Source: Nostoc punctiforme PCC 73102 (GTDB taxonomy: Bacteria > Cyanobacteriota > Cyanobacteriia > Cyanobacteriales > Nostocaceae). Taken from it: a DNA stretch of 32,000 nucleotides. The position numbers and the translations under genes were made by a program. The stretch spans positions 3,210,001 through 3,242,000 of the forward strand of contig NC_010628.1 in the NCBI RefSeq assembly GCF_000020025.1, written 5' to 3'. Positions 6,608 through 30,904 of the stretch are shown here, in pieces (position 1 is the stretch's first letter; every line of letters begins with the position of its first letter). Below the pieces are notes generated by a model that worked only from the letters and a program-made list of their open reading frames with translations, did no database searches and had not been told where the DNA came from.

Positions 6608-7063
6608 CTAATTTAATGCCTCTTGCACCTCTTGTTCGTTTACGGGATAAATTTTTAGTTCTTCAGCACGCGACTGCCCAGGTATTTGAGCCTGCCAATT
6701 TGGATCGGGTTCTGTAAGCGCAAGTAAAGCTGTGAGATTATCTTTACTATTTTGAGATATAAAAGTCTTCACTATTTCAAATAGTATTGAAATATTTATT
6801 CTGTCGTTTGCATTGATGACCATTTCAATTCTGTCTAGCAACCCCGGTATTTTAAATGTTTCTAAAGCTTCTTGCGGCGTTATCCCTTGTTGGAATAAAT
6901 CAACCAAAGTTAATTGTTTTGGTAATTTTTCTTGTGGTACGGGATTATTGATTAGCGGTTTTTGATTCAGCAGAGAAGCGATCGCGGGAAAATTCTGCGC
7001 TGTTACCAATTGCTCGTATTCTGATAATTCGAGTTCGTCTCTAAGGATTGTAATTTTACTCAT
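6608..7063 (-). CDS. Hypothetical tail-operon protein (151 aa), possibly a fibre assembly factor
   Basis: 4-nt overlap with the upstream gene (7060-7063). Helical, acidic, non-structural-looking sequence placed among fibre-like genes. Function is a guess. Confidence 0.5.
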   Translation of the reverse strand: MSKITILRDELELSEYEQLVTAQNFPAIASLLNQKPLINNPVPQEKLPKQLTLVDLFQQGITPQEALETFKIPGLLDRIEMVINANDRINISILFEIVKTFISQNSKDNLTALLALTEPDPNWQAQIPGQSRAEELKIYPVNEQEVQEALN

Positions 7064-7617
7064 AATGTGTAGTAATGGAATGCGTAATTAACTGAATTTG
7101 CACCGGATAAGCTAAGGACTAATGCTGTATTCGCGTCTAATCTTAGTTCTCTATTTAAAAAGTAATTAATGGCTAAACCGTCCCCCTGATTTTGACATAA
7201 AATTCTTTCTTTCGTCGTAGCACCGGATTTTAATATTATGGTTGTTGCGGTACTTGCTTCAAGTTGAATTTTTAAATAGCTAATATTTATTGATATTCCC
7301 GTTCCAGGTGCGGCAATAATCGTATTGTCTCCAACAGTGTTGATTGTCCCAGCAATTATTGTGATAGCAGGTCTATCAAAGAGTGTTGCTAGTCTTTGCA
7401 GCAGTCGCTTGAAAAGGCTAATCAGGGTTGCATTAGCAGTGTCGCTATTTGCCGGGATATCTGAAATTGTCCCAATGGCTGAAGAATCACTTGCAGCGAT
7501 ATCCAGTTTTCCGTTAGCCCCAACAGCGATCGCCCTTACCTTGCCATCTGCATCTACCCCGCCTATTACGTGAGTTTGTAAAGTTCCTGTAGAATCATTC
7601 CCATTTTCAAATCCCAT
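7060..7617 (-). CDS. Small tail protein with shared N-terminal module A (185 aa)
   Basis: N-terminal 37 aa (MGFENGNDSTGTLQTHVIGGVDADGKVRAIAVGANGK) match the N-terminus of ORF 8507..8890 at 30 of 37 positions. The C-terminal domain is different. TAATG overlap with the upstream gene at 7617. Confidence 0.6.
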   Translation of the reverse strand: MGFENGNDSTGTLQTHVIGGVDADGKVRAIAVGANGKLDIAASDSSAIGTISDIPANSDTANATLISLFKRLLQRLATLFDRPAITIIAGTINTVGDNTIIAAPGTGISINISYLKIQLEASTATTIILKSGATTKERILCQNQGDGLAINYFLNRELRLDANTALVLSLSGANSVNYAFHYYTL

Positions 7618-8506: not shown

Positions 8507-8890
8507 TTAAGTCAAAGTAACTAACATGAAGATTGTGTCTGTTGCATTATAAGAAATTTCAGCTATTGTGTCGTTACCTGTTGCTTCCAAAGATACCGAA
8601 TCCCCCGGCAAAAATTCGGTTTCAAGAAGCAATCCAGCAGATCCTCCAATATTGGCAACAAAAACCATTTTTGTCCCAGCAGGGATAACATTTTCGTCAC
8701 TGACTTTTTTAATATCGGGTTTTCTTTGTATTCCCGAATCAACAGGTGTAATACTAACACCTTCACCAATTGATTGTATCCTTCCATTTTCGTCAACAGC
8801 GATCGCTCTAACTTTGCCTTGAGAATCTACCCCACCTATTAAGTAGGTTTGTAGAGTCCCTGTAGAGTCGTTGCCGTTTTCAAATCCCAT
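8507..8890 (-). CDS. Small tail protein with modules A+B (127 aa)
   Basis: The N-terminus is paralogous to ORF 7060..7617. The C-terminal 65 aa are paralogous to ORF 8210..8497. Lies 2 nt downstream of the preceding gene. Confidence 0.6.
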   Translation of the reverse strand: MGFENGNDSTGTLQTYLIGGVDSQGKVRAIAVDENGRIQSIGEGVSITPVDSGIQRKPDIKKVSDENVIPAGTKMVFVANIGGSAGLLLETEFLPGDSVSLEATGNDTIAEISYNATDTIFMLVTLT

Positions 8891-16928: not shown

Positions 16929-17111
16929 CTACCGCTTGTATTGCTGTTCTATTTCTTTGTCTTTTTTTAGTACGCCTTCCAGTTGCCTTGCGGCATCATC
17001 TGCTGGTTGGCGTTTTAAGTATTCGCACCCCATAAACATCACAAGTAGGGCGATCGCCGCACCCAGCGCTACCCATTGTTTTTTAGAAATATTTTTTAGG
17101 TCAAAATTCAT
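16929..17111 (-). CDS. Small single-pass membrane protein (60 aa)
   Basis: Hydrophobic segment WVALGAAIALLVMFMG, followed by Cys and a highly charged C-terminal tail. Could be a holin-like, lipoprotein-like or small-toxin-like peptide. Lies first downstream of terL. Confidence 0.5.
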   Translation of the reverse strand: MNFDLKNISKKQWVALGAAIALLVMFMGCEYLKRQPADDAARQLEGVLKKDKEIEQQYKR

Positions 17112-17322
17112 ACTAGTCAGTTATGTACTGGGTTTATTATTCCCACACTGATATCACTTTTAGTATTTCTTCGGCTTGCAATGCAGGCATATAGCTACTT
17201 CTAAAACAAAATATAAATTCCCGCCTGTTCCCAATATTTCGGAGACCCTGCAAAAATTGCCTGACGGTACTTTCAAGCATTTTTGCTTTTCGCTTCGGAG
17301 ACCCTCAAAACAAGGTTTCATG

Positions 17323-18954
17323 TTAACTAAACAATTTATGCAATTCTTCCATCTCAGAATTAGTCTCAGCTTGCAATGCCGTAGCCGCGTCTTGCGGCAC
17401 TCCTCCCAATTCCATTGGGTTCGTTAGGGCAATAATTACGGCTTCCGAGTCTGGGCTTCTCCCTAATCTGGATTTGGTTTTATCCTTGGGTTCACAGAAG
17501 ATTTCATCTTTGGTATTCGTACTATATCTTGTAGCAGTCAAATCTTGGAATACATACTCTTCATTTTCCAGAGGAGCGATCGCTATTCTCCCACCCATCA
17601 ATAGTTCTCGAAACTGCCAGTACAACTCTGCCTTGAGGTTAGTAAATTTCTGCTTTGGTTCCTCTTTTTGTTTTTTCTTCTTGTAGCTGGGGACATCCCC
17701 AAAACGACAAGGCAAGGCTTGATACCCGGTTTTTTTGAGTTTAGCGAGTGTCCCAGCGCCAACTCCGGTATTATCCACAGCAATTGAGTAACCAGTACCA
17801 AGTAGCTTAATTTGACTTGCTGCAATATCGGCGGCGCGTTCTGTGTCGAGTAAGTCTCCCTTGGTGGGGTGGATTTGCACTTCGTACAATACTGGCCCGC
17901 GTAGCAGTGCCAAAGCGTGAGGATCGCCGCCGTCGCCAACATCTAAGCCTAATCTCCAAGGGTAACGCTTGGCGATCGCATCCCAATATTGTGGATTTTG
18001 ATCGTAGAGCGATCGCGCTTGTTTGAGTAGGGTGAGTAGGATGATGCCGTCTGCTGCATCTTCTGCGTATTCACCCATCACCCGCCCTTTCCAATATGCT
18101 GAAGTTTCAAACTTCTCTCGCCGGACTCGTTCTATCCAATCAATTGAGATTGCGCCGGGGATGCGATCGCGCGGGAATTCTGGCGGCCACTCTTGCTGTG
18201 GTTTAATTTCTCCATCTTCATTGATGATATGTTCGGCTACTTCAGGTTTTAATCTGTAAACGCCATCAGCACACAGTTCATAGGCCCACGAAACATTAGG
18301 GTGACTGAACGCAGAAACAGTCAGGCAACGCTTATCTAGTTTACAAGTCTTAGCAAATTGCGACTGCGGATCTACTGGGTTCCCTATCCTCAATCCCCTA
18401 TTATCTGAGCCAGTCAAACAAGCAATAAACCCGTTATCAATCTGTGGTGTTATCCCGTCCGCTTCATCCTCAATCAGCAATTGCTTTTGTCTATGCTGAC
18501 CCTGAAAGGAATTCTCTGAATAATCACGACTAGTTATGCCAAATGCGTACACAGTCTCAGAAAACAGCAGTTGCATAATGTCGCATCTACCGCCCAATTT
18601 GGTTTTGTGCAAACCGTGAATTTTTCGCAACTCTGCCCACAGTATCCACTTAACCTGATCTTCACTAGGTGCAGTAGTAATTGCCACACCGCCCACGCAA
18701 AACAGGAAATAGATTACAAGTAATGAAGCGATAAAGCTTTTCCCGGTTCCGTGTGCTGCTTTGACATTGGTGATAGGGCGATCGCGTACTGATTCAGCTA
18801 TTATTGTTTGCTCGTTAGTTAGCTCAATACCCAGTTCGTTTTTAAAAAAACCTACCGGATCGTCAGCGTACTGGGGAAAGGGGATAGGACGCGAACCACC
18901 ATGAACTAGTGCGGCATATTTAGATGACGAGGTTTTAAGTTTGGCTAGTCCCAT
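17323..18954 (-). CDS. terL: Terminase large subunit
   Basis: Walker A-like AAHGTGKS and Walker B-like LLIEDEADG. The C-terminal RNase H-like nuclease region begins LGLDVGDGGDPHALAL. Size is 543 aa. Sits in a cluster with the small subunit. Confidence 0.9.
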   Translation of the reverse strand: MGLAKLKTSSSKYAALVHGGSRPIPFPQYADDPVGFFKNELGIELTNEQTIIAESVRDRPITNVKAAHGTGKSFIASLLVIYFLFCVGGVAITTAPSEDQVKWILWAELRKIHGLHKTKLGGRCDIMQLLFSETVYAFGITSRDYSENSFQGQHRQKQLLIEDEADGITPQIDNGFIACLTGSDNRGLRIGNPVDPQSQFAKTCKLDKRCLTVSAFSHPNVSWAYELCADGVYRLKPEVAEHIINEDGEIKPQQEWPPEFPRDRIPGAISIDWIERVRREKFETSAYWKGRVMGEYAEDAADGIILLTLLKQARSLYDQNPQYWDAIAKRYPWRLGLDVGDGGDPHALALLRGPVLYEVQIHPTKGDLLDTERAADIAASQIKLLGTGYSIAVDNTGVGAGTLAKLKKTGYQALPCRFGDVPSYKKKKQKEEPKQKFTNLKAELYWQFRELLMGGRIAIAPLENEEYVFQDLTATRYSTNTKDEIFCEPKDKTKSRLGRSPDSEAVIIALTNPMELGGVPQDAATALQAETNSEMEELHKLFS

Positions 18955-19518
18955 CTATCCAAAAGGATTGGAAATATCCAGCCTAGTAATAACACAGTCT
19001 TCTTCGTAAGTTCTTAAAAATTCCCATGCTTGCTTGTTCCATCTAGCATCAGCAAGTGCGTTGTGTTCGCCTTTGTCTTGTTTTGGTAATTCTGGATCGC
19101 CTAGCTGTTTACACCATTGCTTGATGTCGTTGGCGTACATTGGGAACCCTTTGGGAAGGTCAATCATTGCCCCAAATAACTGACAGAAGGCCACCCAATC
19201 GTAATCAGCATAGTATCCCCAAAATTCTGGCTTCCACCCTTCCTCAAAATGTGGCTCTTTGGGATACCAGCTTAGAAACCTGACAATACTGGTAGCGATC
19301 GCCTGTCTTGTTTTCCATCGATCGCTACCAGTGCAAGTTAAAAAGTCGCCTTCTAAGTGAGGGAGAACGTTTGCTTTAACCCAATTACTTGCTCGACTGA
19401 AATCACATTCAGCATTTTGAAAATATAGCTCACGCCCATCTTCGGCAACTATGCCAATTGAAATAAGCTCTATTGTACGACCATCTTCAATAAATTCTGT
19501 ATCTAGCCAGTAGTGCAT
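18955..19518 (-). CDS. DEDDh 3'-5' exo(ribo)nuclease, Rv2179c-like
   Basis: The N-terminus MHYWLDTEFIEDGRTIELISIGIVAEDGRELYF closely matches the Rv2179c family N-terminus as I remember it (DTEFIEDGRTIELISIGVVAEDGRE). Further acidic motif YADYDW and H-x4-D motif HNALADARW. Abuts the terL start. Confidence 0.8.
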   Translation of the reverse strand: MHYWLDTEFIEDGRTIELISIGIVAEDGRELYFQNAECDFSRASNWVKANVLPHLEGDFLTCTGSDRWKTRQAIATSIVRFLSWYPKEPHFEEGWKPEFWGYYADYDWVAFCQLFGAMIDLPKGFPMYANDIKQWCKQLGDPELPKQDKGEHNALADARWNKQAWEFLRTYEEDCVITRLDISNPFG

Positions 19519-19544
19519 AAAATTATTAAGGTTATGTGATTTAT

Positions 19545-19561
19545 AAGCGATCGCCTACTAA
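19545..19561. repeat. 17-nt direct repeat copy 1 (AAGCGATCGCCTACTAA)
   Basis: Identical to 19781-19797. Contains HIP1. Lies between the stop of the 71-aa ORF and the exonuclease start. Confidence 0.8.
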
Positions 19562-19562
19562 T

Positions 19563-19778
19563 TTAGATGATGATTTCTTGAGCAAAAGCAAAAGGAACAT
19601 ACGCAATACCTCTTGAGGATTGTGCCATCAATCCTTGTTGAACCAATTGTGAAACGTCCACAGCATACTGCTTTGGTATACCGTCCACAACTTCCACAAC
19701 ATCAAAAACCTGCTCTACAAAATTGTTAAACCACATTTGATAGCGTTCTGTATCTGGTTGTGTGATTTTAATTTGCAT
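19563..19778 (-). CDS. Hypothetical protein (71 aa)
   Basis: ORF between terS and the exonuclease, bracketed by the 17-nt direct repeats. No family recognised. Confidence 0.5.
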   Translation of the reverse strand: MQIKITQPDTERYQMWFNNFVEQVFDVVEVVDGIPKQYAVDVSQLVQQGLMAQSSRGIAYVPFAFAQEIII

Positions 19779-19780
19779 AA

Positions 19781-19797
19781 AAGCGATCGCCTACTAA
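19781..19797. repeat. 17-nt direct repeat copy 2 (AAGCGATCGCCTACTAA)
   Basis: Identical to 19545-19561. Lies between the terS stop (19809) and the start of the 71-aa ORF (19778). Confidence 0.8.
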
Positions 19798-19808
19798 CTA
19801 TCACAATC

Positions 19809-20402
19809 TTAATCTGGTTTACCAATCGTTCTCAACTCTTCTTCCATCCTCCCTATACCCTCACCAATTACTCTTGCTTGCTCTGGTGTTGCTACACCTT
19901 CAGCCAACAATAATTGCACCGCATCAAGTACAGGAATATCTTTAGGATACAACCGTAGTCGCTTCATTAATTTTTCTAACGCTGACAATTTATCATGCAT
20001 CGTTACCGTTGTTGTGGTGGTAACTCCGTCTTTACTTAAAGTTTTGGATACTGTAATACTTTTTACCGAAGCCTTGGCGCGATCGCCCCACTCCTCAGAC
20101 TTCTTGATTTTTATGTTATCGCCATCGTACTCTAAGATATCAGTGATCCTTGAAAGGGCGATCGCTGCTACCTCAGCAATAATTTTTACCTCAGACAGTC
20201 CCGCAATTTCCCCTAGATAGGCTTGTATCTTAGTGTTTCTTAGTAGCGCACAAGCGCTTGCAGCAGCGGAGTTATCGTTTTTGACATTGTATCCTGCTCT
20301 GATATATGCACGAGTTTTATTGAGGTCTTTGACGTACTCGTGACAAAACCTCAGTTGCAAGTCTGTTAATTCTTGTGGGTTAGTTTTCTTATCCCCAGGC
20401 AT
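19809..20402 (-). CDS. terS: Terminase small subunit (Terminase_2-like)
   Basis: The N-terminal LTDLQLRFCHEYVKDLNKTRAYIRAGYNVKNDNSAAASACALLRNTKIQAYL fits the small-terminase HTH pattern (LT.KQ..F..EY....N...A...AGYS). Same strand and cluster as terL. Confidence 0.85.
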   Translation of the reverse strand: MPGDKKTNPQELTDLQLRFCHEYVKDLNKTRAYIRAGYNVKNDNSAAASACALLRNTKIQAYLGEIAGLSEVKIIAEVAAIALSRITDILEYDGDNIKIKKSEEWGDRAKASVKSITVSKTLSKDGVTTTTTVTMHDKLSALEKLMKRLRLYPKDIPVLDAVQLLLAEGVATPEQARVIGEGIGRMEEELRTIGKPD

Positions 20403-25751: not shown

Positions 25752-28400
25752 TTAGCTGTGTGCCTTGTAGCGGTAGTAGTCTATAGGGGTAAACCCAGTA
25801 ACCGCAGAAAGGGCAAGCCCCGCACCTGCAATCAAACGCTTACGTTTTGCCTTTCGGACTATAACGGTTTTGCCTTTTTTTGTGCGGCGAGTGTAAGTGC
25901 TGCTAAAATTAGCCGAGCAACAACAGTGGCGTTTCAAAACACGGCGTTTAAGTCTACGTTTCAATCCTGCGAAAAACGCGGTCTTGGGGTTTCCCCAAGT
26001 GGAGCGATTTTTCAAGACAGTACCAAATTCCGCCGTTTTAATTGGGTGGCGAGACGCTGCAATGCTATTACCACCAATTCGTCTTTTAGCGACTCTAGAA
26101 CCGCTTCCTTCTCCGAATTTGTAAGTATGCTGTAAGCTGGCAAGGACTTCATCGTATACCTCCTTTTCTACTTTTTTGGGATTCTCACCATTGGCTATGC
26201 GTTCAGAGGCGCGGTTAATTGCGGTTGATGTTGCACCTGATAAGTTCTTTTCTTTATCAAAGGCATCAAGCGCTTTGGATGCTGTCTCTGAGATTTCGGC
26301 TGATTCAGCTACATTTATCTGGTTGCCAGCCTTAGCCAAATCTTCAGCAGCACGCGATCGCCCCACTGTGCCAAATAGCTTTTTCTCTCTAGCTAGTTGA
26401 CGTTTAATCGAAGCTTGGATTTGCGCTTTTTCCACAGCAAGCGATCGCGTCTCTGGAGAAAATCCAAGCAAGTCAAACAACCCACCTTGGGATTCCTGCA
26501 CTTTAGGAGCGCCAACCACCATATCGGTTAATTCCTGGATGGTATCGTTGTTAATTTTCTTTCCTCGTTTCTCCTCCTTCTCAATCAGGTCTACCAATTC
26601 TTGCTGCTGTTTGTGGTCTTTGAGTGCGTTACCAATTGTCACGGCTCGTTGTTCGGGTAGCGTTCCCTGTACCACGCGGAAGAATAATGGTTCATTAAGT
26701 CGGGATAAAGCTAAACCATCAGTAGCAATTTTTTCACGCATTGGTATGCCCTTGCGTTCTAAATCTTCTCGACTCACTCCAGAATCGCGGAAGAATTTAG
26801 CAGCATCTAATGCATTGCCACGACCCTCAGCTATGTTAGTTAAAGCACCAACAGCGCGGGCTTCTTGCGGAGATTTGGCTTTGATGAATTTAGCAGTCAT
26901 GGTTTTGACACCAAGCGCCTTGGCTCGTTCGGTGCGGTTGTGACCATTCACTACATATACTTGCTTGTCCTTGGGATCTTGCCAAACTTGGATAATGCCA
27001 GCTAAGTTTGCATCCCAAGTTTTAACTCCAGAGAGGGAGCCAACTGAACCAGTAGAAGTTTGAGCGCCCAAGATTTTGTATTGAAAGCGTTTCGGGTCAA
27101 CTTTTAGCTTTGACACCTCCACTTCAGCAATACCACTAGAAAGTACCTGCCTTGCTCCAACGCTAGCAGCTGCTTGGGTTAGTTGTAGTTTTTCCTTTTG
27201 GGACTTTAACTTGGCTTGGCGATCGCCTACCGATTGTAATAGTTGGCGATCGTAGTCGTTTTGAGGGAGTCTCCCTTGCTGGGCATCACGGTAAACTTGG
27301 GCGCGTTGCTTGGTGTACTGCTTGTAGGTGATTGGAGTTTTGGTTTTGATTCCCGTTTTTGGGTCGGTGTAGCACTTGCGGTTGTAGGGGATGAAGGTTT
27401 TACCGCATTGCCAACCACCACGCCCAAACTCTATCCTTCTGCCATCTGCCCTCTGCCCTCTGCCTTCATTAAATTCAGCGCGGCGTTTGATGCGTTTTTT
27501 GAATAGTGGCAGTCCACCTTGTAAATCTTTGTCGTATGCTAACGGGTTGAATAGGGAAGTTTGAGTATTTTTCTGAGCTTGTTGCTCAGTTTTGAGTTTA
27601 GCCATCCGCGCTTTTTTGGCTTGTTCTTCCCATGATTTAATTCGGGATTGGTCGCCTGACTTTTTAGCCTCAGCTAACTCTTGATTGGCGTAAGCTTCAC
27701 GGTCAGCAGCCGATTTAAGGTCTTCAGCTTTGATGAGCTTTTTATTAGATTCCTTGGGTGGGGGCGGGGTGTCTTTGTCGTTCCCGTCTAGGTTTAAGGC
27801 TGGTTTATCCTTTACTCCAAATCTTTGTGCTAACTCTGGATACCCCTGTTGTAAATCTGGGTATCCCTGCTTGGCTGCATTGTGGTTAACTTTGCTCCAA
27901 ATTTCGGCATACTTACCTTTGTTGAAATCGTCAAAAGCTTTTCCAGTTGTCTCTTTATCTTTTTTTCTAGTGGCACTGCTAGCTGCACGGGAAAGGCGAT
28001 CGCGCTCCGTACTCACCTGCTCGTATTCACGATAAACATCAGGTGGTAGGTAATCTTTTAATCTATCTTCATACTGATTAACTGTTAATTCTTTAGGATT
28101 GTCTAACTCTTTTAATTTAGATGCCCATTGAGAGCGCTGTTTTTGAATATCAACAGATGGTGGTTTATTTTTCCATCCTGGTACAGCAGCCCGACGGCGA
28201 TCGCGTATAGCCTGCTCTCTATCTTTATATAGCGTTTGTGCAGCTTTACCCTTAGAACCGACAATCTTCTGGTAAACCTGATAGTTAATTGGGGTCTTTA
28301 ACCGTTTACCAGTCTTGGGGTCAGTCCAACATTTGGCGCGATTAGGGATGAAAGTGCCACCACAAGGCCAACCAAATTCGGCGCGGCTGTAATCGGACAT
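25752..28400 (-). CDS. Large multidomain protein with a ParB/Srx-like domain (882 aa from ATG 28400; 906 aa from the track start 28472)
   Basis: ParB-N-like motifs: VSKLKVDPKRFQYK and YVVNGHNRTERAKALG (GxxR...A). Two ~40-aa Cys-containing modules (GWPCGGTFIPNRAKCWTDPKTGKRLKTPINY and GWQCGKTFIPYNRKCYTDPKTGIKTKTPITY) plus a degenerate third. K/E/Q-rich linkers. Basic plus hydrophobic C-terminus. ATG 28400 avoids a 50-nt overlap with the upstream gene. Confidence 0.75.
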   Translation of the reverse strand: MSDYSRAEFGWPCGGTFIPNRAKCWTDPKTGKRLKTPINYQVYQKIVGSKGKAAQTLYKDREQAIRDRRRAAVPGWKNKPPSVDIQKQRSQWASKLKELDNPKELTVNQYEDRLKDYLPPDVYREYEQVSTERDRLSRAASSATRKKDKETTGKAFDDFNKGKYAEIWSKVNHNAAKQGYPDLQQGYPELAQRFGVKDKPALNLDGNDKDTPPPPKESNKKLIKAEDLKSAADREAYANQELAEAKKSGDQSRIKSWEEQAKKARMAKLKTEQQAQKNTQTSLFNPLAYDKDLQGGLPLFKKRIKRRAEFNEGRGQRADGRRIEFGRGGWQCGKTFIPYNRKCYTDPKTGIKTKTPITYKQYTKQRAQVYRDAQQGRLPQNDYDRQLLQSVGDRQAKLKSQKEKLQLTQAAASVGARQVLSSGIAEVEVSKLKVDPKRFQYKILGAQTSTGSVGSLSGVKTWDANLAGIIQVWQDPKDKQVYVVNGHNRTERAKALGVKTMTAKFIKAKSPQEARAVGALTNIAEGRGNALDAAKFFRDSGVSREDLERKGIPMREKIATDGLALSRLNEPLFFRVVQGTLPEQRAVTIGNALKDHKQQQELVDLIEKEEKRGKKINNDTIQELTDMVVGAPKVQESQGGLFDLLGFSPETRSLAVEKAQIQASIKRQLAREKKLFGTVGRSRAAEDLAKAGNQINVAESAEISETASKALDAFDKEKNLSGATSTAINRASERIANGENPKKVEKEVYDEVLASLQHTYKFGEGSGSRVAKRRIGGNSIAASRHPIKTAEFGTVLKNRSTWGNPKTAFFAGLKRRLKRRVLKRHCCCSANFSSTYTRRTKKGKTVIVRKAKRKRLIAGAGLALSAVTGFTPIDYYRYKAHS
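27439..27466. repeat. In-frame heptamer array CTGCCAT CTGCCCT CTGCCCT CTGCCTT inside the ParB-like gene
   Basis: Four 7-nt units. 27434-27467 matches 15772-15805 (the right arm of the intergenic hairpin) at 31 of 34 positions in the same orientation. On the minus strand it encodes EGRGQRADGRR. Confidence 0.85.
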
Positions 28401-28422
28401 TCTAAACAGTACCGTTCCCACG

Positions 28423-28962
28423 TTAGATCCCCCAATCAATAGAACTGGCAGCAGCCGGATTTCGCTGCTCAACTATGCTATAGCTACGGCTAACAACATC
28501 GGGTATCTCTCCTCTCTTAGGTACTCCCGGTAGAACCATAGGCTCAACTCGATTGAATGCAGTTGATGGTGGAGGAGCTAATCCAGGCAACGTAATCCCG
28601 ATCGCCTGACACTCTTCCTTGGCTTGCTTAAATAGGATCGCACCATACCCCTGATCGCCCCCCTCCCCTTGAGTTTGCTGGTAATGGGTACTCATAATTT
28701 CAGCAACCACAAATTTCTCAACAATGGATGCAAGAATTCTCAATGATTGGGTAGCATCGTTAGGGACAGGTAGCTCATAGAGCATAGATAGAGCCATGTC
28801 TAACTTGGCTTCTACCTGTTCGCCAAGTTGCTCGTATAAAGAGTAATCAACTTGTTTTGCTCCGAGTGCTTGGGTTTGCCCTAGTGTCGGTGGCCCATTG
28901 TTTAGTTCAAGGCGGTTTTTGAGGCGACGGGCGATCGCCTCTGGAGTTGTGTATTTAAGCAT
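28423..28962 (-). CDS. Head-tail connector-like protein (DUF1320 / Mu gp36-like), 179 aa from ATG 28962
   Basis: The N-terminal MLKYTTPEAIARRL and the central ...VEAKLDMALSMLYELPVPNDATQSLRILASIVEKFVVAEI resemble the DUF1320 pattern as I remember it. ATG 28962 overlaps the upstream stop by 8 nt (AATGCTTAA), consistent with coupling. The track start at 29010 is less likely. Confidence 0.5.
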   Translation of the reverse strand: MLKYTTPEAIARRLKNRLELNNGPPTLGQTQALGAKQVDYSLYEQLGEQVEAKLDMALSMLYELPVPNDATQSLRILASIVEKFVVAEIMSTHYQQTQGEGGDQGYGAILFKQAKEECQAIGITLPGLAPPPSTAFNRVEPMVLPGVPKRGEIPDVVSRSYSIVEQRNPAAASSIDWGI

Positions 28963-29284
28963 TGGGATTGTAACCTGTGTAGCCTCTAGCCTTAATTTGA
29001 TACCTACCAACGTTACCTTGAGCGGTTATCCCTAAACCTCGCTCCCCTATACTTGGGCGAAATTCCTCACGGATGTTACGGCGATCGCTCCTCACAGAAC
29101 CCACACCTAAACCGTAGGCTTCACCTTTATCAATAGGGACGGATAGCCTAGCAGAAATTCGCCCCCGTTCAACCTTGAGACGATTCCTTGATTTGCGGAC
29201 AATTTGTTGCTTGCCGTTGCGGATGCGGGTGTAGGTAGAAGAGAAATTAGCTTGGCTGAATAACGCTACCAGTGGGTAATTCAT
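28955..29284 (-). CDS. Highly basic small protein (109 aa; 16 R + 5 K vs 7 D/E)
   Basis: The charge was counted from the track translation. The N-terminal ANFSSTYTRIRNGKQQIVRKSRNR matches the C-terminal region of the ParB-like protein. It overlaps the upstream gene by 38 nt. Confidence 0.55.
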   Translation of the reverse strand: MNYPLVALFSQANFSSTYTRIRNGKQQIVRKSRNRLKVERGRISARLSVPIDKGEAYGLGVGSVRSDRRNIREEFRPSIGERGLGITAQGNVGRYQIKARGYTGYNPNA

Positions 29285-29768
29285 CGGTTATCGCCTGCCC
29301 AAAGAGTGTTTGATCGAATAGCAATTTATCTGAATAAGTTTCCCACTTCAGATTTTTACCAAGGGGGACGCGTAGCTTTAAATCTTCCAAGCTAGTAAAG
29401 GGAGATTTTACTCGCTCCTCTGCTACCTTTTTGGCAACAACAATGCTGACACCTTCAAGGGCAGCGATCGCCTCTATGGTTGCGTCGTTAATGTGAATCC
29501 TTTCAGGAGTAGGGACTACCACAGTAGAAGTTCCGTAATTAACTTGCTCGTTGTTGGGAGTTTCTGCACCAATTTTTATAATGGTTTCTTCAAAACTGCC
29601 AGCAAAGGGGCTAAACGTTGGGATATCTGGGGAACCTTGAGTAACATATTCTTCAGTTAGTAGTGCCGTAGGCAATTCACCTGGCTTATATTCCCGTGGA
29701 TGGTAAAAGTTGCCTTGATACTGTGCGTGTTTTTTCAGCGTTACAGGTTGATTTGGATCGATTGTCAT
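29247..29768 (-). CDS. ComEA-type helix-hairpin-helix DNA-binding domain protein (173 aa from ATG 29768)
   Basis: IHINDATIEAIAALEGVSIVVAKKVAEERVKSPFTSLEDLKLRVPLGKN fits the ComEA HhH consensus (NiN.A..eeL..LpGIG...A..Iv.yRe..GpF.s.eDL..V.GIG). ATG 29768 forms an ATGA overlap with the capsid gene stop. Confidence 0.65.
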   Translation of the reverse strand: MTIDPNQPVTLKKHAQYQGNFYHPREYKPGELPTALLTEEYVTQGSPDIPTFSPFAGSFEETIIKIGAETPNNEQVNYGTSTVVVPTPERIHINDATIEAIAALEGVSIVVAKKVAEERVKSPFTSLEDLKLRVPLGKNLKWETYSDKLLFDQTLFGQAITDELPTGSVIQPS

Positions 29769-30904
29769 CACGCCACCTTCCTTGCTGCTAGCTGCTTGGG
29801 TTGTGCAATCCAAGGAATCATTCTGCCTACTGCGTAAGAGCGGCTTTCCGGTGGTGAAGATTTTAAAGTTTCTTCACTTTTAATAAAGATTCCTGGTTTG
29901 CCTTTAGCTTCAATCGTGGGGCCAAATAAACGTTTGCTCATGCCTTTGGTTAAGAAAACATAAGTATCGTTGGGGAAATATCGCCCTCTAATATTTTGCC
30001 CTGGCGCGATTTCAATTTCATACTGAGCATCACTAACCCGGAGTTTAGGAATTTTCAACTCAGTGGTAATTTTCTCCAAAATTGTTTGCCCGACCATTGC
30101 TTGCACAGATGAACCAGGGACGTTGTTGATTATCCCTAAACCGAGTGCGTAGTTGCGGGTTGATTGTTGCCTGAGCAAGTTATCCATCAAGTCTTGCGAT
30201 AACACGGTTTCATCTGGATAGTAGCCATTGAGATCGTAGAATGCGCGTGCGTGCCGCTGCAAATTGTCTATACCATTGGCGTTAGTGGCATCAGTCCAGA
30301 TAGCGCTGCCTAAAGTGTTACCAGTCAAAGGGGCCGGGAATAAAGTTGGCTCGGTATTGTATTGCAAGCGAAAGCGGGAACCCGATCGCGTATCGGTAAA
30401 GTCGCATAGTCCAGTAGTGACGGTTTGCCACCACAAAACATTAGCGGTTTTCACAACTCTAGGTTGGAGACTGTCTACCGTACCAATTAGCAGATCCACA
30501 AAATAGCGGGGCATATTCTGCATTTGCGCCAGTTCCATCATCCGGATCTCATCTTCTTCATTGAAGATGTGGGAGATCGCAATCTTACCGAACGACGAAC
30601 CTTCAATTTTGGTCAAGCGACCTGCACGGGTTTGGGGGATTTCTTGACCTGTGGCAATGATAGACGCGATCGCCATGTTCCTTTCGATCATGTATTCCAA
30701 CACCCGGAAATCGTCGGTCATTTCCATCGGTGCGTACTCATCAGGGATGATGTATTGGTCAAGCAGTTTCATATCAGGCTGCTTACCTTCGGTTTTGAGG
30801 CGAATTTCCTTATTAGGATCGACCAAGAATGCGCTTGTATTGTCAATCAGCGCATCTATCTTGGTTTTAATTCGGGCTGTATTGAGAAATTTTGCAATAG
30901 ACAT
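29768..30904 (-). CDS. Major capsid protein (lambda gpE-like, tentative family)
   Basis: 378 aa, preceded by a decoration-like gene as in the lambda D-E order. The C-terminal pattern YFPNDTYVFLTKG...PPESRSYAVGRMIPWIAQPKQLAARKV parallels lambda gpE FLPDNTMVLGN...DPAREFTMIQSAPLMLLADPDEFVSVQL, from memory. Confidence 0.7.
   Translation of the reverse strand: MSIAKFLNTARIKTKIDALIDNTSAFLVDPNKEIRLKTEGKQPDMKLLDQYIIPDEYAPMEMTDDFRVLEYMIERNMAIASIIATGQEIPQTRAGRLTKIEGSSFGKIAISHIFNEEDEIRMMELAQMQNMPRYFVDLLIGTVDSLQPRVVKTANVLWWQTVTTGLCDFTDTRSGSRFRLQYNTEPTLFPAPLTGNTLGSAIWTDATNANGIDNLQRHARAFYDLNGYYPDETVLSQDLMDNLLRQQSTRNYALGLGIINNVPGSSVQAMVGQTILEKITTELKIPKLRVSDAQYEIEIAPGQNIRGRYFPNDTYVFLTKGMSKRLFGPTIEAKGKPGIFIKSEETLKSSPPESRSYAVGRMIPWIAQPKQLAARKVA

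Follow-up and report, generated by a model that had tools for sequence, protein, structure and literature searches.

A ParB-fold protein with two-cysteine modules, encoded between the head and neck genes of a Nostoc punctiforme prophage, as a candidate head-packaged cargo protein

Introduction

Polyvalent proteins with ParB-fold domains, encoded beside virion genes, have already been described by Iyer et al. (2017), who named a ParB/Srx domain of such proteins DdrB-like ParB (PMC5512222). In phage P1, the Dar proteins, including the ParB-fold protein DdrB and the methyltransferase DarB, are present in the virion (PMC9024508, PMC5512222), and the N-terminal 30 amino acids (aa) of DarB suffice for capsid targeting (PMC9024508). 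Here we analysed a stretch of 32,000 nucleotides (nt) of the genome of Nostoc punctiforme PCC 73102 (contig NC_010628.1, positions 3,210,001 to 3,242,000; hereafter the window), in particular the prophage gene Npun_R2601. Its product appears to be a polyvalent-type cargo protein that is made late, packaged in the head and injected with the DNA, a reading to which the sequence and the gene context lead us to assign a probability of roughly 0.55. That polyvalent proteins with ParB-fold domains form a known class had been missed by the first-pass annotation of the window, and a search of the literature on Npun_R2601 or its neighbours found nothing.

Like the P1 Dar/DdrB-like proteins, Npun_R2601 has a ParB/Srx-superfamily domain within a large phage protein encoded among late/virion genes, and DNA methyltransferases are carried by sibling cargo genes, as by P1 DarB. 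Relatives of its core are fused to Mu-F, portal, zeta toxin, 2H and helicase domains, as in the domain network of the polyvalent proteins. However, the N-terminal Cys module and the basic tail of Npun_R2601 have no counterpart in P1, and the core, unlike the DdrB-like ParB domain, keeps the helix-turn-helix (HTH)-type helical domain of ParB. A further parallel is provided by the T4 internal proteins and P1 DarB, in which a short N-terminal element is likewise common to differing payload proteins of one phage lineage encoded in the head-gene region. The targeting sequences of the latter are peptides of 10-30 aa, whereas the candidate targeting element of Npun_R2601 is a folded unit of ~95 aa with two invariant Cys, which is also found internally, at a fixed distance from the ParB core.

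The gene corresponds to an uninterrupted minus-strand open reading frame (ORF) of 906 codons at 25752..28472, from whose first codon residues are numbered below. This ORF had been correctly delimited in the first-pass annotation, and the peptides quoted there were all located at the coordinates given for them. Its translation is identical to that of Npun_R2601 and contains one recognisable catalytic-type domain, two Cys modules and a tail.

The ParB-type core

The core is composed of the following three parts.

26793..27131, minus strand: ParB/Srx-type N-terminal (nucleoside triphosphate (NTP)-pocket) domain, aa ~448-560
26400..26792, minus strand: helical domain aligned to the ParB HTH/DNA-binding domain, aa ~561-691
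26103..26399, minus strand: C-terminal helical part of the conserved core, aa ~692-790

A ParB/Srx domain had been proposed at about nt 26790-27110 in the first-pass annotation, and its presence, at roughly nt 26790-27130, was borne out by Foldseek searches with an AlphaFold2 (AF2) model and by profile-profile comparison with controls, whereas ordinary profile searches were blind to it. When the AF2 model of aa 425-800 (predicted local distance difference test score (pLDDT), 80; predicted template modelling score (pTM), 0.70) was searched against PDB, the top 24 matches were all ParB, Noc, KorB or pNOB8 ParB, with E-values of 9e-5 to 5e-2 and probabilities of at least 0.97 (1.00 for the top 19). 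These matches span ~180-240 aligned columns and cover both the N-terminal nucleotide-binding domain and the HTH domain, and sulfiredoxin, serine kinase and other non-clamp proteins of the ParB/Srx fold were ranked lower. The architecture of the core is nearer to that of clamp-type ParBs than to that of sulfiredoxin.

For the profile-profile comparison by hhalign, an alignment of ten authentic annotated plasmid ParB/KorB proteins, all of which adjoin ParA or AAA ATPase genes or lie in plasmid partition loci, was used as bait against the core profile. The two aligned over 222 co-linear columns with a score of 32.4 (pairwise P=0.0013). The controls scored much lower, with 17.1 when the alignment was reversed, 13.8 +/- 2.7 after column shuffling and 20.1 +/- 2.0 (maximum, 24.3) after block shuffling. 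In this register, NPYQPR of the bait corresponds to D459-P460-K461-R462, GERR to G510-H511-N512-R513 with R513 opposite the second Arg, and ENLQR to T545-N546-I547-A548-E549 with N546 opposite the Asn; the HTH helices were aligned as well. The aligned box positions are invariant or near-invariant within the core family: the box I position is occupied by the invariant DPKRFQYK (aa 459-466), box II by NGHNR (aa 509-513), which is invariant but for one position, and box III by TNIAEGRG (aa 545-552). Neither GERR nor ENLQR is intact in the core, which has GHNR and TNIAE and thus keeps the Gly, the second Arg and the Asn only.

The similarity to ParB escaped conventional searches. Pfam ParBc gave no match at E<=1 for Npun_R2601 or at E<=0.1 for 25 homologues, a Pfam search with full-length Npun_R2601 returned sub-threshold noise only, and phmmer and hmmsearch searches of PDB sequences yielded coiled-coil noise only; a weak Pfam HTH_ParB match was obtained for one homologue (P0070). 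The assignment of the core to the ParB/Srx superfamily thus holds at the level of the predicted fold and, weakly, at the profile-profile level. Membership in the DdrB-ParB family was also considered and rejected. Pfam ddrB-ParB (PF18763) detected the P1 DdrB control at 2.1e-39 and matched none of the 26 family members (Npun_R2601 and 25 homologues), an hhalign comparison with a P1 DdrB profile (aa 25-200 plus 31 homologues) gave a probability of 0.07% (P=0.69), and the single-sequence hhalign comparison was negative, too. The core is a separate, unannotated family that has the DdrB-ParB fold and the same biological setting.

With the ParB, Noc and KorB clamps, the core has in common the N-domain fold and the HTH-like domain, co-linear over ~220 residues, as well as three box residues, namely the Gly and the second Arg in box II and the Asn in box III. 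In contrast to these clamps, Npun_R2601 has no ParA partner and no recognisable C-terminal dimerisation domain, its gene belongs to a virion module, and portal fusions of the core exist in relatives.

Relatives of the core and their fusions

In PHROGs, aa 429-756 of Npun_R2601 matched positions 998-1322 (of 1362) of phrog_21 'portal protein' (E=5e-59); this group evidently includes portal-core fusions. The core is located C-terminal to Mu-type portals in three proteins (P0056, P0062 and P0063), to lambda-type portals in P0058-P0060, and to Mu-F in P0057, and it was also found fused to zeta toxin and methyltransferase domains. One of the lambda-portal-core fusions is encoded directly after the GpA terminase. 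Portal-fused and standalone homologues alike contain the C-terminal helical part of the core, to ~aa 776-792.

When each species was represented by one genome (about 186,000 species genomes), the scan found 34 core loci in taxa including cyanobacteria, Acidobacteria, Planctomycetes, Verrucomicrobia, Myxococcales, Gemmatimonadales and Nitrospiraceae. In most of them, the core is contained in ORFs of 500-3,575 aa, and the domains co-occurring with it were Portal_Mu, Phage_Mu_F, Zeta_toxin, 2H phosphoesterase and ResIII helicase. One 1,740-aa protein of a Myxococcales metagenome-assembled genome (MAG) (L038, 5843-11062) combines Mu-F, a zeta toxin and two tandem cores. In a Foldseek search of BFVD with the 376-aa core, matches 1-10 were proteins of uncultured phages (831-1,484 aa; E=2e-25 to 2e-7), all but one of which exceed 1,000 aa and several of which are named 'Large polyvalent protein associated domain-containing'; ordinary phage ParB/Srx proteins were found further down the list. 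Some homologues have been named 'ParB-like chromosome segregation protein' by Joint Genome Institute (JGI) pipelines. The core represents a new ParB-fold family, not covered by Pfam, in which the ParB layout of N-domain and HTH is kept and fusions to portals recur.

Of the isolated phages, 18 Prochlorococcus podoviruses of the P-SCSP1 type contain the core (31% identity, E~1e-30), which is located in a 2,563-aa protein encoded downstream of the tail-tube genes, at the position of T7 gp14-16. The authors of the P-SCSP1 genome guessed, from size and position alone, that internal virion proteins are encoded there (PMC9860041). This protein provides a link to the internal core proteins of the T7 gp16 type by its homologous core segment, but the prophage of Npun_R2601 is siphovirus-like, and T7 gp16 itself showed no similarity. 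The assignment of the P-SCSP1 protein to the internal core is positional only. A literature search on ParB-fold domains in ejection proteins found nothing specific.

A standalone core protein of 544 aa is encoded in the phage structural module of another locus (L006). The same locus also encodes a portal-inorganic pyrophosphatase (InPase) fusion and a large protein for which a faint ADP-ribosyltransferase (ART) match was obtained (1-1790 and 16974-17635); its head module encodes several cargo-type proteins. Cyanophage-like core genes with 53-69% identity were found on contigs assigned to the MAGs of an archaeon (Woesearchaeota, L014) and an alphaproteobacterium (Acetobacteraceae, L009); these are probably phage contigs that were mis-binned.

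The two-cysteine module and the N-terminal unit

The region upstream of the core is organised as follows.

28374..28421, minus strand: N-terminal leader, aa 18-33, 'MGTVLFRMSDYSRAEF'
28266..28373, minus strand: Cys module copy 1, aa 34-69, GWPCGGTFIPNRAKCWTDPKTGKRLKTPINYQVYQK, with two invariant Cys
28137..28265, minus strand: conserved basic helical extension of the N-terminal unit, aa 70-112, '...SKGKAAQTLYKDREQAIRDRRRAAVPGWK'
27483..28136, minus strand: K/A/L/D/E-rich region with no recognised domain, aa 113-330
27417..27482, minus strand: degenerate internal leader, aa 331-352, 'RAEFNEGRGQRADGRRIEFGRG'
27309..27416, minus strand: Cys module copy 2, aa 353-388

The first-pass annotation had described a Cys module repeated three times, of which two copies stood and the third did not. 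In a formal self-alignment, copies 1 and 2 aligned with a score of 139, compared with 23.8 +/- 4.6 for shuffled sequences (z=25; 0/2000 shuffles reached 139), and an iterative hidden Markov model (HMM) of the module, run on the window translated in six frames, detected two copies and no more, both of them in the Npun_R2601 ORF. The supposed third copy (aa 814-836) has only 'AEFG' and 'NPKT' in common with the module; it scored -0.4 bits against the module HMM, and its pairwise z values were 4.1 against copy 1 and 1.6 against copy 2. The module is thus to be regarded as repeated twice.

Across 42 sequences, the invariant residues of the module are two Cys (C-x10-C), two Gly and one Pro, and its consensus is F-G-[WY]-x-C-G-x-x-F-I-P-x-x-x-K-C-[WY]-T-[DH]-P-K-T-G-x-x-L-K-x-P. 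Conservation of the N-terminal unit spans ~95 aa and comprises the leader, the module and the basic helices; the leader pattern ('VLF...A[E/N/D]F' or 'YPxLAxF') is kept directly upstream of the module in other cargo proteins. In the AF2 model of aa 18-125 (mean pLDDT, 71; 82-89 in the module itself), four short strands form two hairpins, each bearing one Cys, and are followed by helices. No fold match for this model was found in PDB. The module does not conform to a zinc ribbon or zinc finger, which has four ligands, usually in two CxxC motifs, as there are only two invariant Cys in a C-x10-C arrangement; the D/H position (TDP or THP) could be a third metal ligand.

A word-indexed homologue search with the 51-aa module profile, which is unsuited to such short queries, gave 52 candidates and two matches, and an exhaustive search of representative proteins was used in its place. 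The module is rare: the exhaustive HMM search of 1.84 billion representative proteins found 51 clusters, and in the genome scan, full modules were restricted to loci of Nostocales. Of 68 full-module proteins, 55 have their first module beginning no more than 60 residues from the N-terminus, and 66 no more than 130 residues from it; the ParB-type core is missing from 33. In all 35 proteins with both elements, a module lies 64-75 aa upstream of the core. Its payloads include DNA methyltransferases, ART, M90 peptidase, DUF6321 and a Tudor-like domain. The similarity between these proteins extends beyond the module, as aa 18-~300 of Npun_R2601 are 36-46% identical to the N-terminal regions of the cargo proteins P0061 and P0064-P0067, three of which (P0064, P0065 and P0067) carry methyltransferase domains. 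The 'long K/E/Q linkers' of the first-pass annotation are therefore not mere linkers, since the first ~200-300 aa are conserved and common to methyltransferase-carrying cargo proteins. This two-cysteine unit, unassigned and, as the searches indicate, rare, is a new N-terminal element, and the payloads that follow it in Nostocales prophages are interchangeable.

The presence of two modules in Npun_R2601 is best explained, on sequence grounds, by the fusion of two module-headed cargo genes, because the internal-leader position is still N-terminus-like ('VVLFRMASNAEF') in the 85%-identical orthologue P0002, a single-module protein exists in Nostoc CHAB 5836 (P0004, 564 aa, consisting only of leader, module, core and tail), and module genes occur side by side in a related prophage (L005). 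In the latter, a gene for a module-headed methyltransferase (P0065, 1,001 aa) adjoins the gene P0003, whose product contains a module, a second module and the core, and both are located between capsid, helix-hairpin-helix (HhH) and small genes on one side and neck genes on the other, as is Npun_R2601.

The basic tail

The C-terminal region and a neighbouring gene with related motifs contain the following elements.

25755..26102, minus strand: basic tail, aa 791-906, with 30 K+R and 2 D+E (net +28 over 116 aa)
within 25755..26102, minus strand: 'TAEFG...NPKT' pseudo-copy of the module
25917-25925, minus strand: Cys cluster CCC
25836-25916, minus strand: basic motif SANFSSTYTRRTKKGKTVIVRKAKRKR
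25791-25835, minus strand: Gly/Ala-rich hydrophobic segment LIAGAGLALSAVTGF, glycine-zipper-like, 15 aa
28955..29284, minus strand: neighbouring gene of 109 aa, N-terminus 'MNYPLVALFSQANFSSTYTRIRNGKQQIVRK'

The CCC triplet, the very basic tail and the hydrophobic segment, all of which the first-pass annotation had pointed out, are present and are conserved in close homologues. The tail unit has the order Cys cluster, A[KN]F, (S)TYTRRTKxGKxxIVRK, basic stretch and Gly/Ala-rich hydrophobic segment. It is C-terminal in Npun_R2601, P0002, P0004 and the homologue in L010, and its part consisting of the basic motif and the hydrophobic segment is N-terminal in P0077 and P0081, upstream of a Cys module. 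The 109-aa neighbouring gene opens with 'YPLVALF..ANFSSTYTRIRNGKQQIVRK', that is, with a leader-like motif and basic motifs such as those in the tail of Npun_R2601, and its homologue in Nostoc CHAB 5836 (L008, 8210-9184) runs on into a copy of the basic-plus-hydrophobic cassette. The basic/hydrophobic tail unit behaves as a movable cassette, which is a new finding.

As a transmembrane helix, LIAGAGLALSAVTGF is marginal in Npun_R2601 (15 aa; 19-residue hydropathy, 1.37); the hydrophobic stretch is 20-23 residues long in homologues. A tripeptide-type pattern, [AI][EN]F[GNS], which was defined post hoc, occurs five times in the Npun_R2601 protein compared with 0.07 expected. Protease sites were considered as an explanation and set aside as an idea only: two of the five occurrences are within the repeated module, the search for a prohead protease was negative, and the N-termini of the capsid and scaffold-like proteins lack the pattern.

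Prophage setting and gene start

Npun_R2601 is located between the gene for the major head protein and a neck (Neck1-type) gene, within the late structural operon of a siphovirus-like prophage, whose other genes include those for terminase and for a tape measure of 2,074 aa, and it is tightly coupled to the upstream gene. A ParA-type match was found in none of the ~30 window proteins scanned with PHROGs or Pfam. No portal or prohead protease was identified in window 1-32000, nor before the capsid gene in L005 (1249-4501), and the 310-aa and 313-aa proteins that precede the capsid gene gave no PHROG or Pfam matches.

25752..28421, minus strand: revised gene, 889 aa including the GTG start, with the stop codon at 25752-25754

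In the NCBI annotation, Npun_R2601 is a hypothetical protein of 882 aa that starts at Met25 (nt 28400). The sequence makes GTG 28421, codon 18 of the ORF, the most likely start, rather than 28472 or Met25, because this codon lies 1 nt past the TAA of the upstream gene, is preceded by a GGGGGA run, and is the codon from which the N-termini of homologues ('MGxVLF...') align with the Npun_R2601 ORF. The NCBI gene is probably seven codons too short.

Several other features of the prophage were observed. An HHH_3 (HhH, ComEA-like) protein is encoded directly after the major capsid gene (29247-29813, minus strand) and is syntenic in L005 (5668-6132); a DNA-binding HhH protein is unusual in a head module. 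The region 17323-20402 (minus strand) contains a small terminase gene and an RNase H-like ORF (phrog_2259, E=1e-56) that directly adjoins an ORF of 543 aa resembling a large terminase; the nuclease part of the terminase may have been split off as an ORF of its own. The position of these genes, between tail-proximal genes and the tape-measure gene and downstream of the genes for head and neck, makes for an unusual order. Two minus-strand ORFs of the tail region (7060-7617 and 8507-8890) have nearly the same N-terminus, 'MGFENGNDSTGTLQT[YH][LV]IGGVD..GKVRAIAV', which points to a local duplication. At the edge of the window, a plus-strand ORF (7-1404), on the strand opposite to the structural operon, matched phrog_15468 (unknown function; profile length, 1,704) with E=6e-108.

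Possible function of Npun_R2601

A virion-borne, DNA-associated role of Npun_R2601, already suggested in the first-pass annotation, is strongly supported at the sequence level, if not proven, by the fusions of the core to Mu- and lambda-type portals and Mu-F, by the P-SCSP1 protein and by the matches to 'large polyvalent' proteins. The view that it is not a partition protein also stood: because ParA is absent from the window proteins, boxes II and III are altered (GHNR, not GERR), the gene lies in a late structural operon and relatives are fused to portals, a partition function is unlikely. The present analysis shows the ORF, its repeats, the fold, the fusion partners of the core and the gene contexts; beyond these, we infer for Npun_R2601 packaging into the virion, ejection, nucleotide binding and an adaptor role of the Cys module.

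The protein would be made late, together with the virion genes, and incorporated into the procapsid, its N-terminal unit serving as a common adaptor that brings different payloads there; in other phyla, the covalent fusion of the core to a portal or Mu-F would do the job of the adaptor. It would then exit with the DNA into the next host, where the ParB-type core may bind the incoming (or host) DNA under nucleotide regulation, either as a clamp or shield or as a nickase, and the basic tail may bind DNA non-specifically or contact a membrane. If the Dar anti-restriction proteins in the head of P1 are taken as a model, survival and establishment of the genome would be helped. Because methyltransferase and ParB-fold cargo share a gene slot, as in the case of P1 DarB and DdrB, the pair mirrors the latter and suggests that the incoming genome may be protected from restriction.

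Several points weigh against Npun_R2601 being injected cargo. The presence of this protein or its close homologues in virions is deduced from the genes; with a single recognisable enzyme-type domain, it is a minimal polyvalent protein at best; and with GHNR in the place of GERR and no Pfam ParBc match, nucleotide binding by the core is not assured, its specificity being doubtful, too, because GERR is altered at two of its four positions and box III at most of its positions. The fixed spacing of 64-75 aa could mean that module and core function together, for instance in dimerisation or in binding DNA, and that the module is not a packaging adaptor, and the C-terminal hydrophobic segment could be an anchor in the membrane of the producer cell. 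Carried further, the last point would make Npun_R2601 a non-virion late protein of the producer or lysogenic cell, tethered to the membrane by the C-terminal basic-plus-hydrophobic unit and acting, for example, in superinfection exclusion, prophage DNA handling or partition-like positioning. The C-terminal basic stretch and the Gly/Ala-rich hydrophobic segment behind it, which reaches 20-23 residues in homologues, do resemble a tail anchor, and the JGI name given to some homologues would fit such a function. We nevertheless regard it as very improbable, given the short segment (15 aa; 19-residue hydropathy, 1.37) of Npun_R2601 itself, the location of the gene in a late structural operon with tight upstream coupling, the absence of ParA and the core fusions to portal and Mu-F, which make a capsid location far likelier.

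The portal fusions, found at the C-termini of Mu- and lambda-type portals in several phyla, place the core at the portal and inside the head, and they would also suit a structural or assembly factor at the portal vertex. In that case, a ParB-type clamp would hold the end of the packaged genome, or the first or last DNA to pass through the portal, and would be required to terminate packaging, to retain the DNA or to orient its ejection, with the basic tail bound to packaged DNA. The gene position between capsid and neck genes, the N-terminal domain plus HTH architecture typical of DNA clamps and the net charge of +28 in the tail all agree with this proposal. However, the core is also associated with effector partners (zeta toxin, methyltransferases, 2H and helicase) in giant proteins, and its patchy distribution (34 loci among about 186,000 species genomes) and absence from most phages argue against a core assembly role, so that we hold a portal-vertex factor to be unlikely. 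A further alternative is a toxin-like protein, injected or expressed late, that attacks host or competitor DNA or nucleotide pools, and does not protect phage DNA, as a ParB-fold nuclease or NTPase. ParB/Srx domains of conflict systems are often non-specific nickases or NTPases, Iyer et al. favour NTP sensing/degradation or DNase activity for the polyvalent ParB domains (PMC5512222), the core has an invariant polar constellation (DPKRFQYK, NGHNR, N546, E549 and D556), and it co-occurs with zeta toxin and ART domains. Against this, the best structural matches are the DNA-clamp proteins ParB, Noc and KorB with their HTH domains, and the metal-binding acidic pair typical of nucleases is not assignable without coordinates; a toxin of this kind seems decidedly improbable.

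A more specific, two-part version of the preferred reading, in which Npun_R2601 is head-packaged cargo, can be put forward only tentatively, and as a whole it is doubtful. In this version, the core would be a nucleotide-switched ParB clamp in the capsid, free here and tethered to the portal elsewhere, that loads at genome entry, and the ~95-aa unit would be a transferable capsid-targeting and possibly metal-bridged dimerising tag for the anti-defence payloads of Nostocales (methyltransferases, ART and ParB-fold domains).

Implications

To our knowledge, almost nothing is known about phage counter-defence in filamentous cyanobacteria. If our reading of Npun_R2601 is true, the start codon and the functional annotation of this gene and its relatives would be corrected, and the strategy of head-packaged, injected effectors represented by the P1 Dar and polyvalent proteins would extend to the prophages of filamentous cyanobacteria. 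The portal-welded ParB-fold family would then provide a handle on the role of a ParB-type nucleotide switch inside the capsid, and the rare N-terminal Cys module, which heads methyltransferase, ART and ParB-fold cargo, would be a candidate packaging tag that may be usable for protein delivery.

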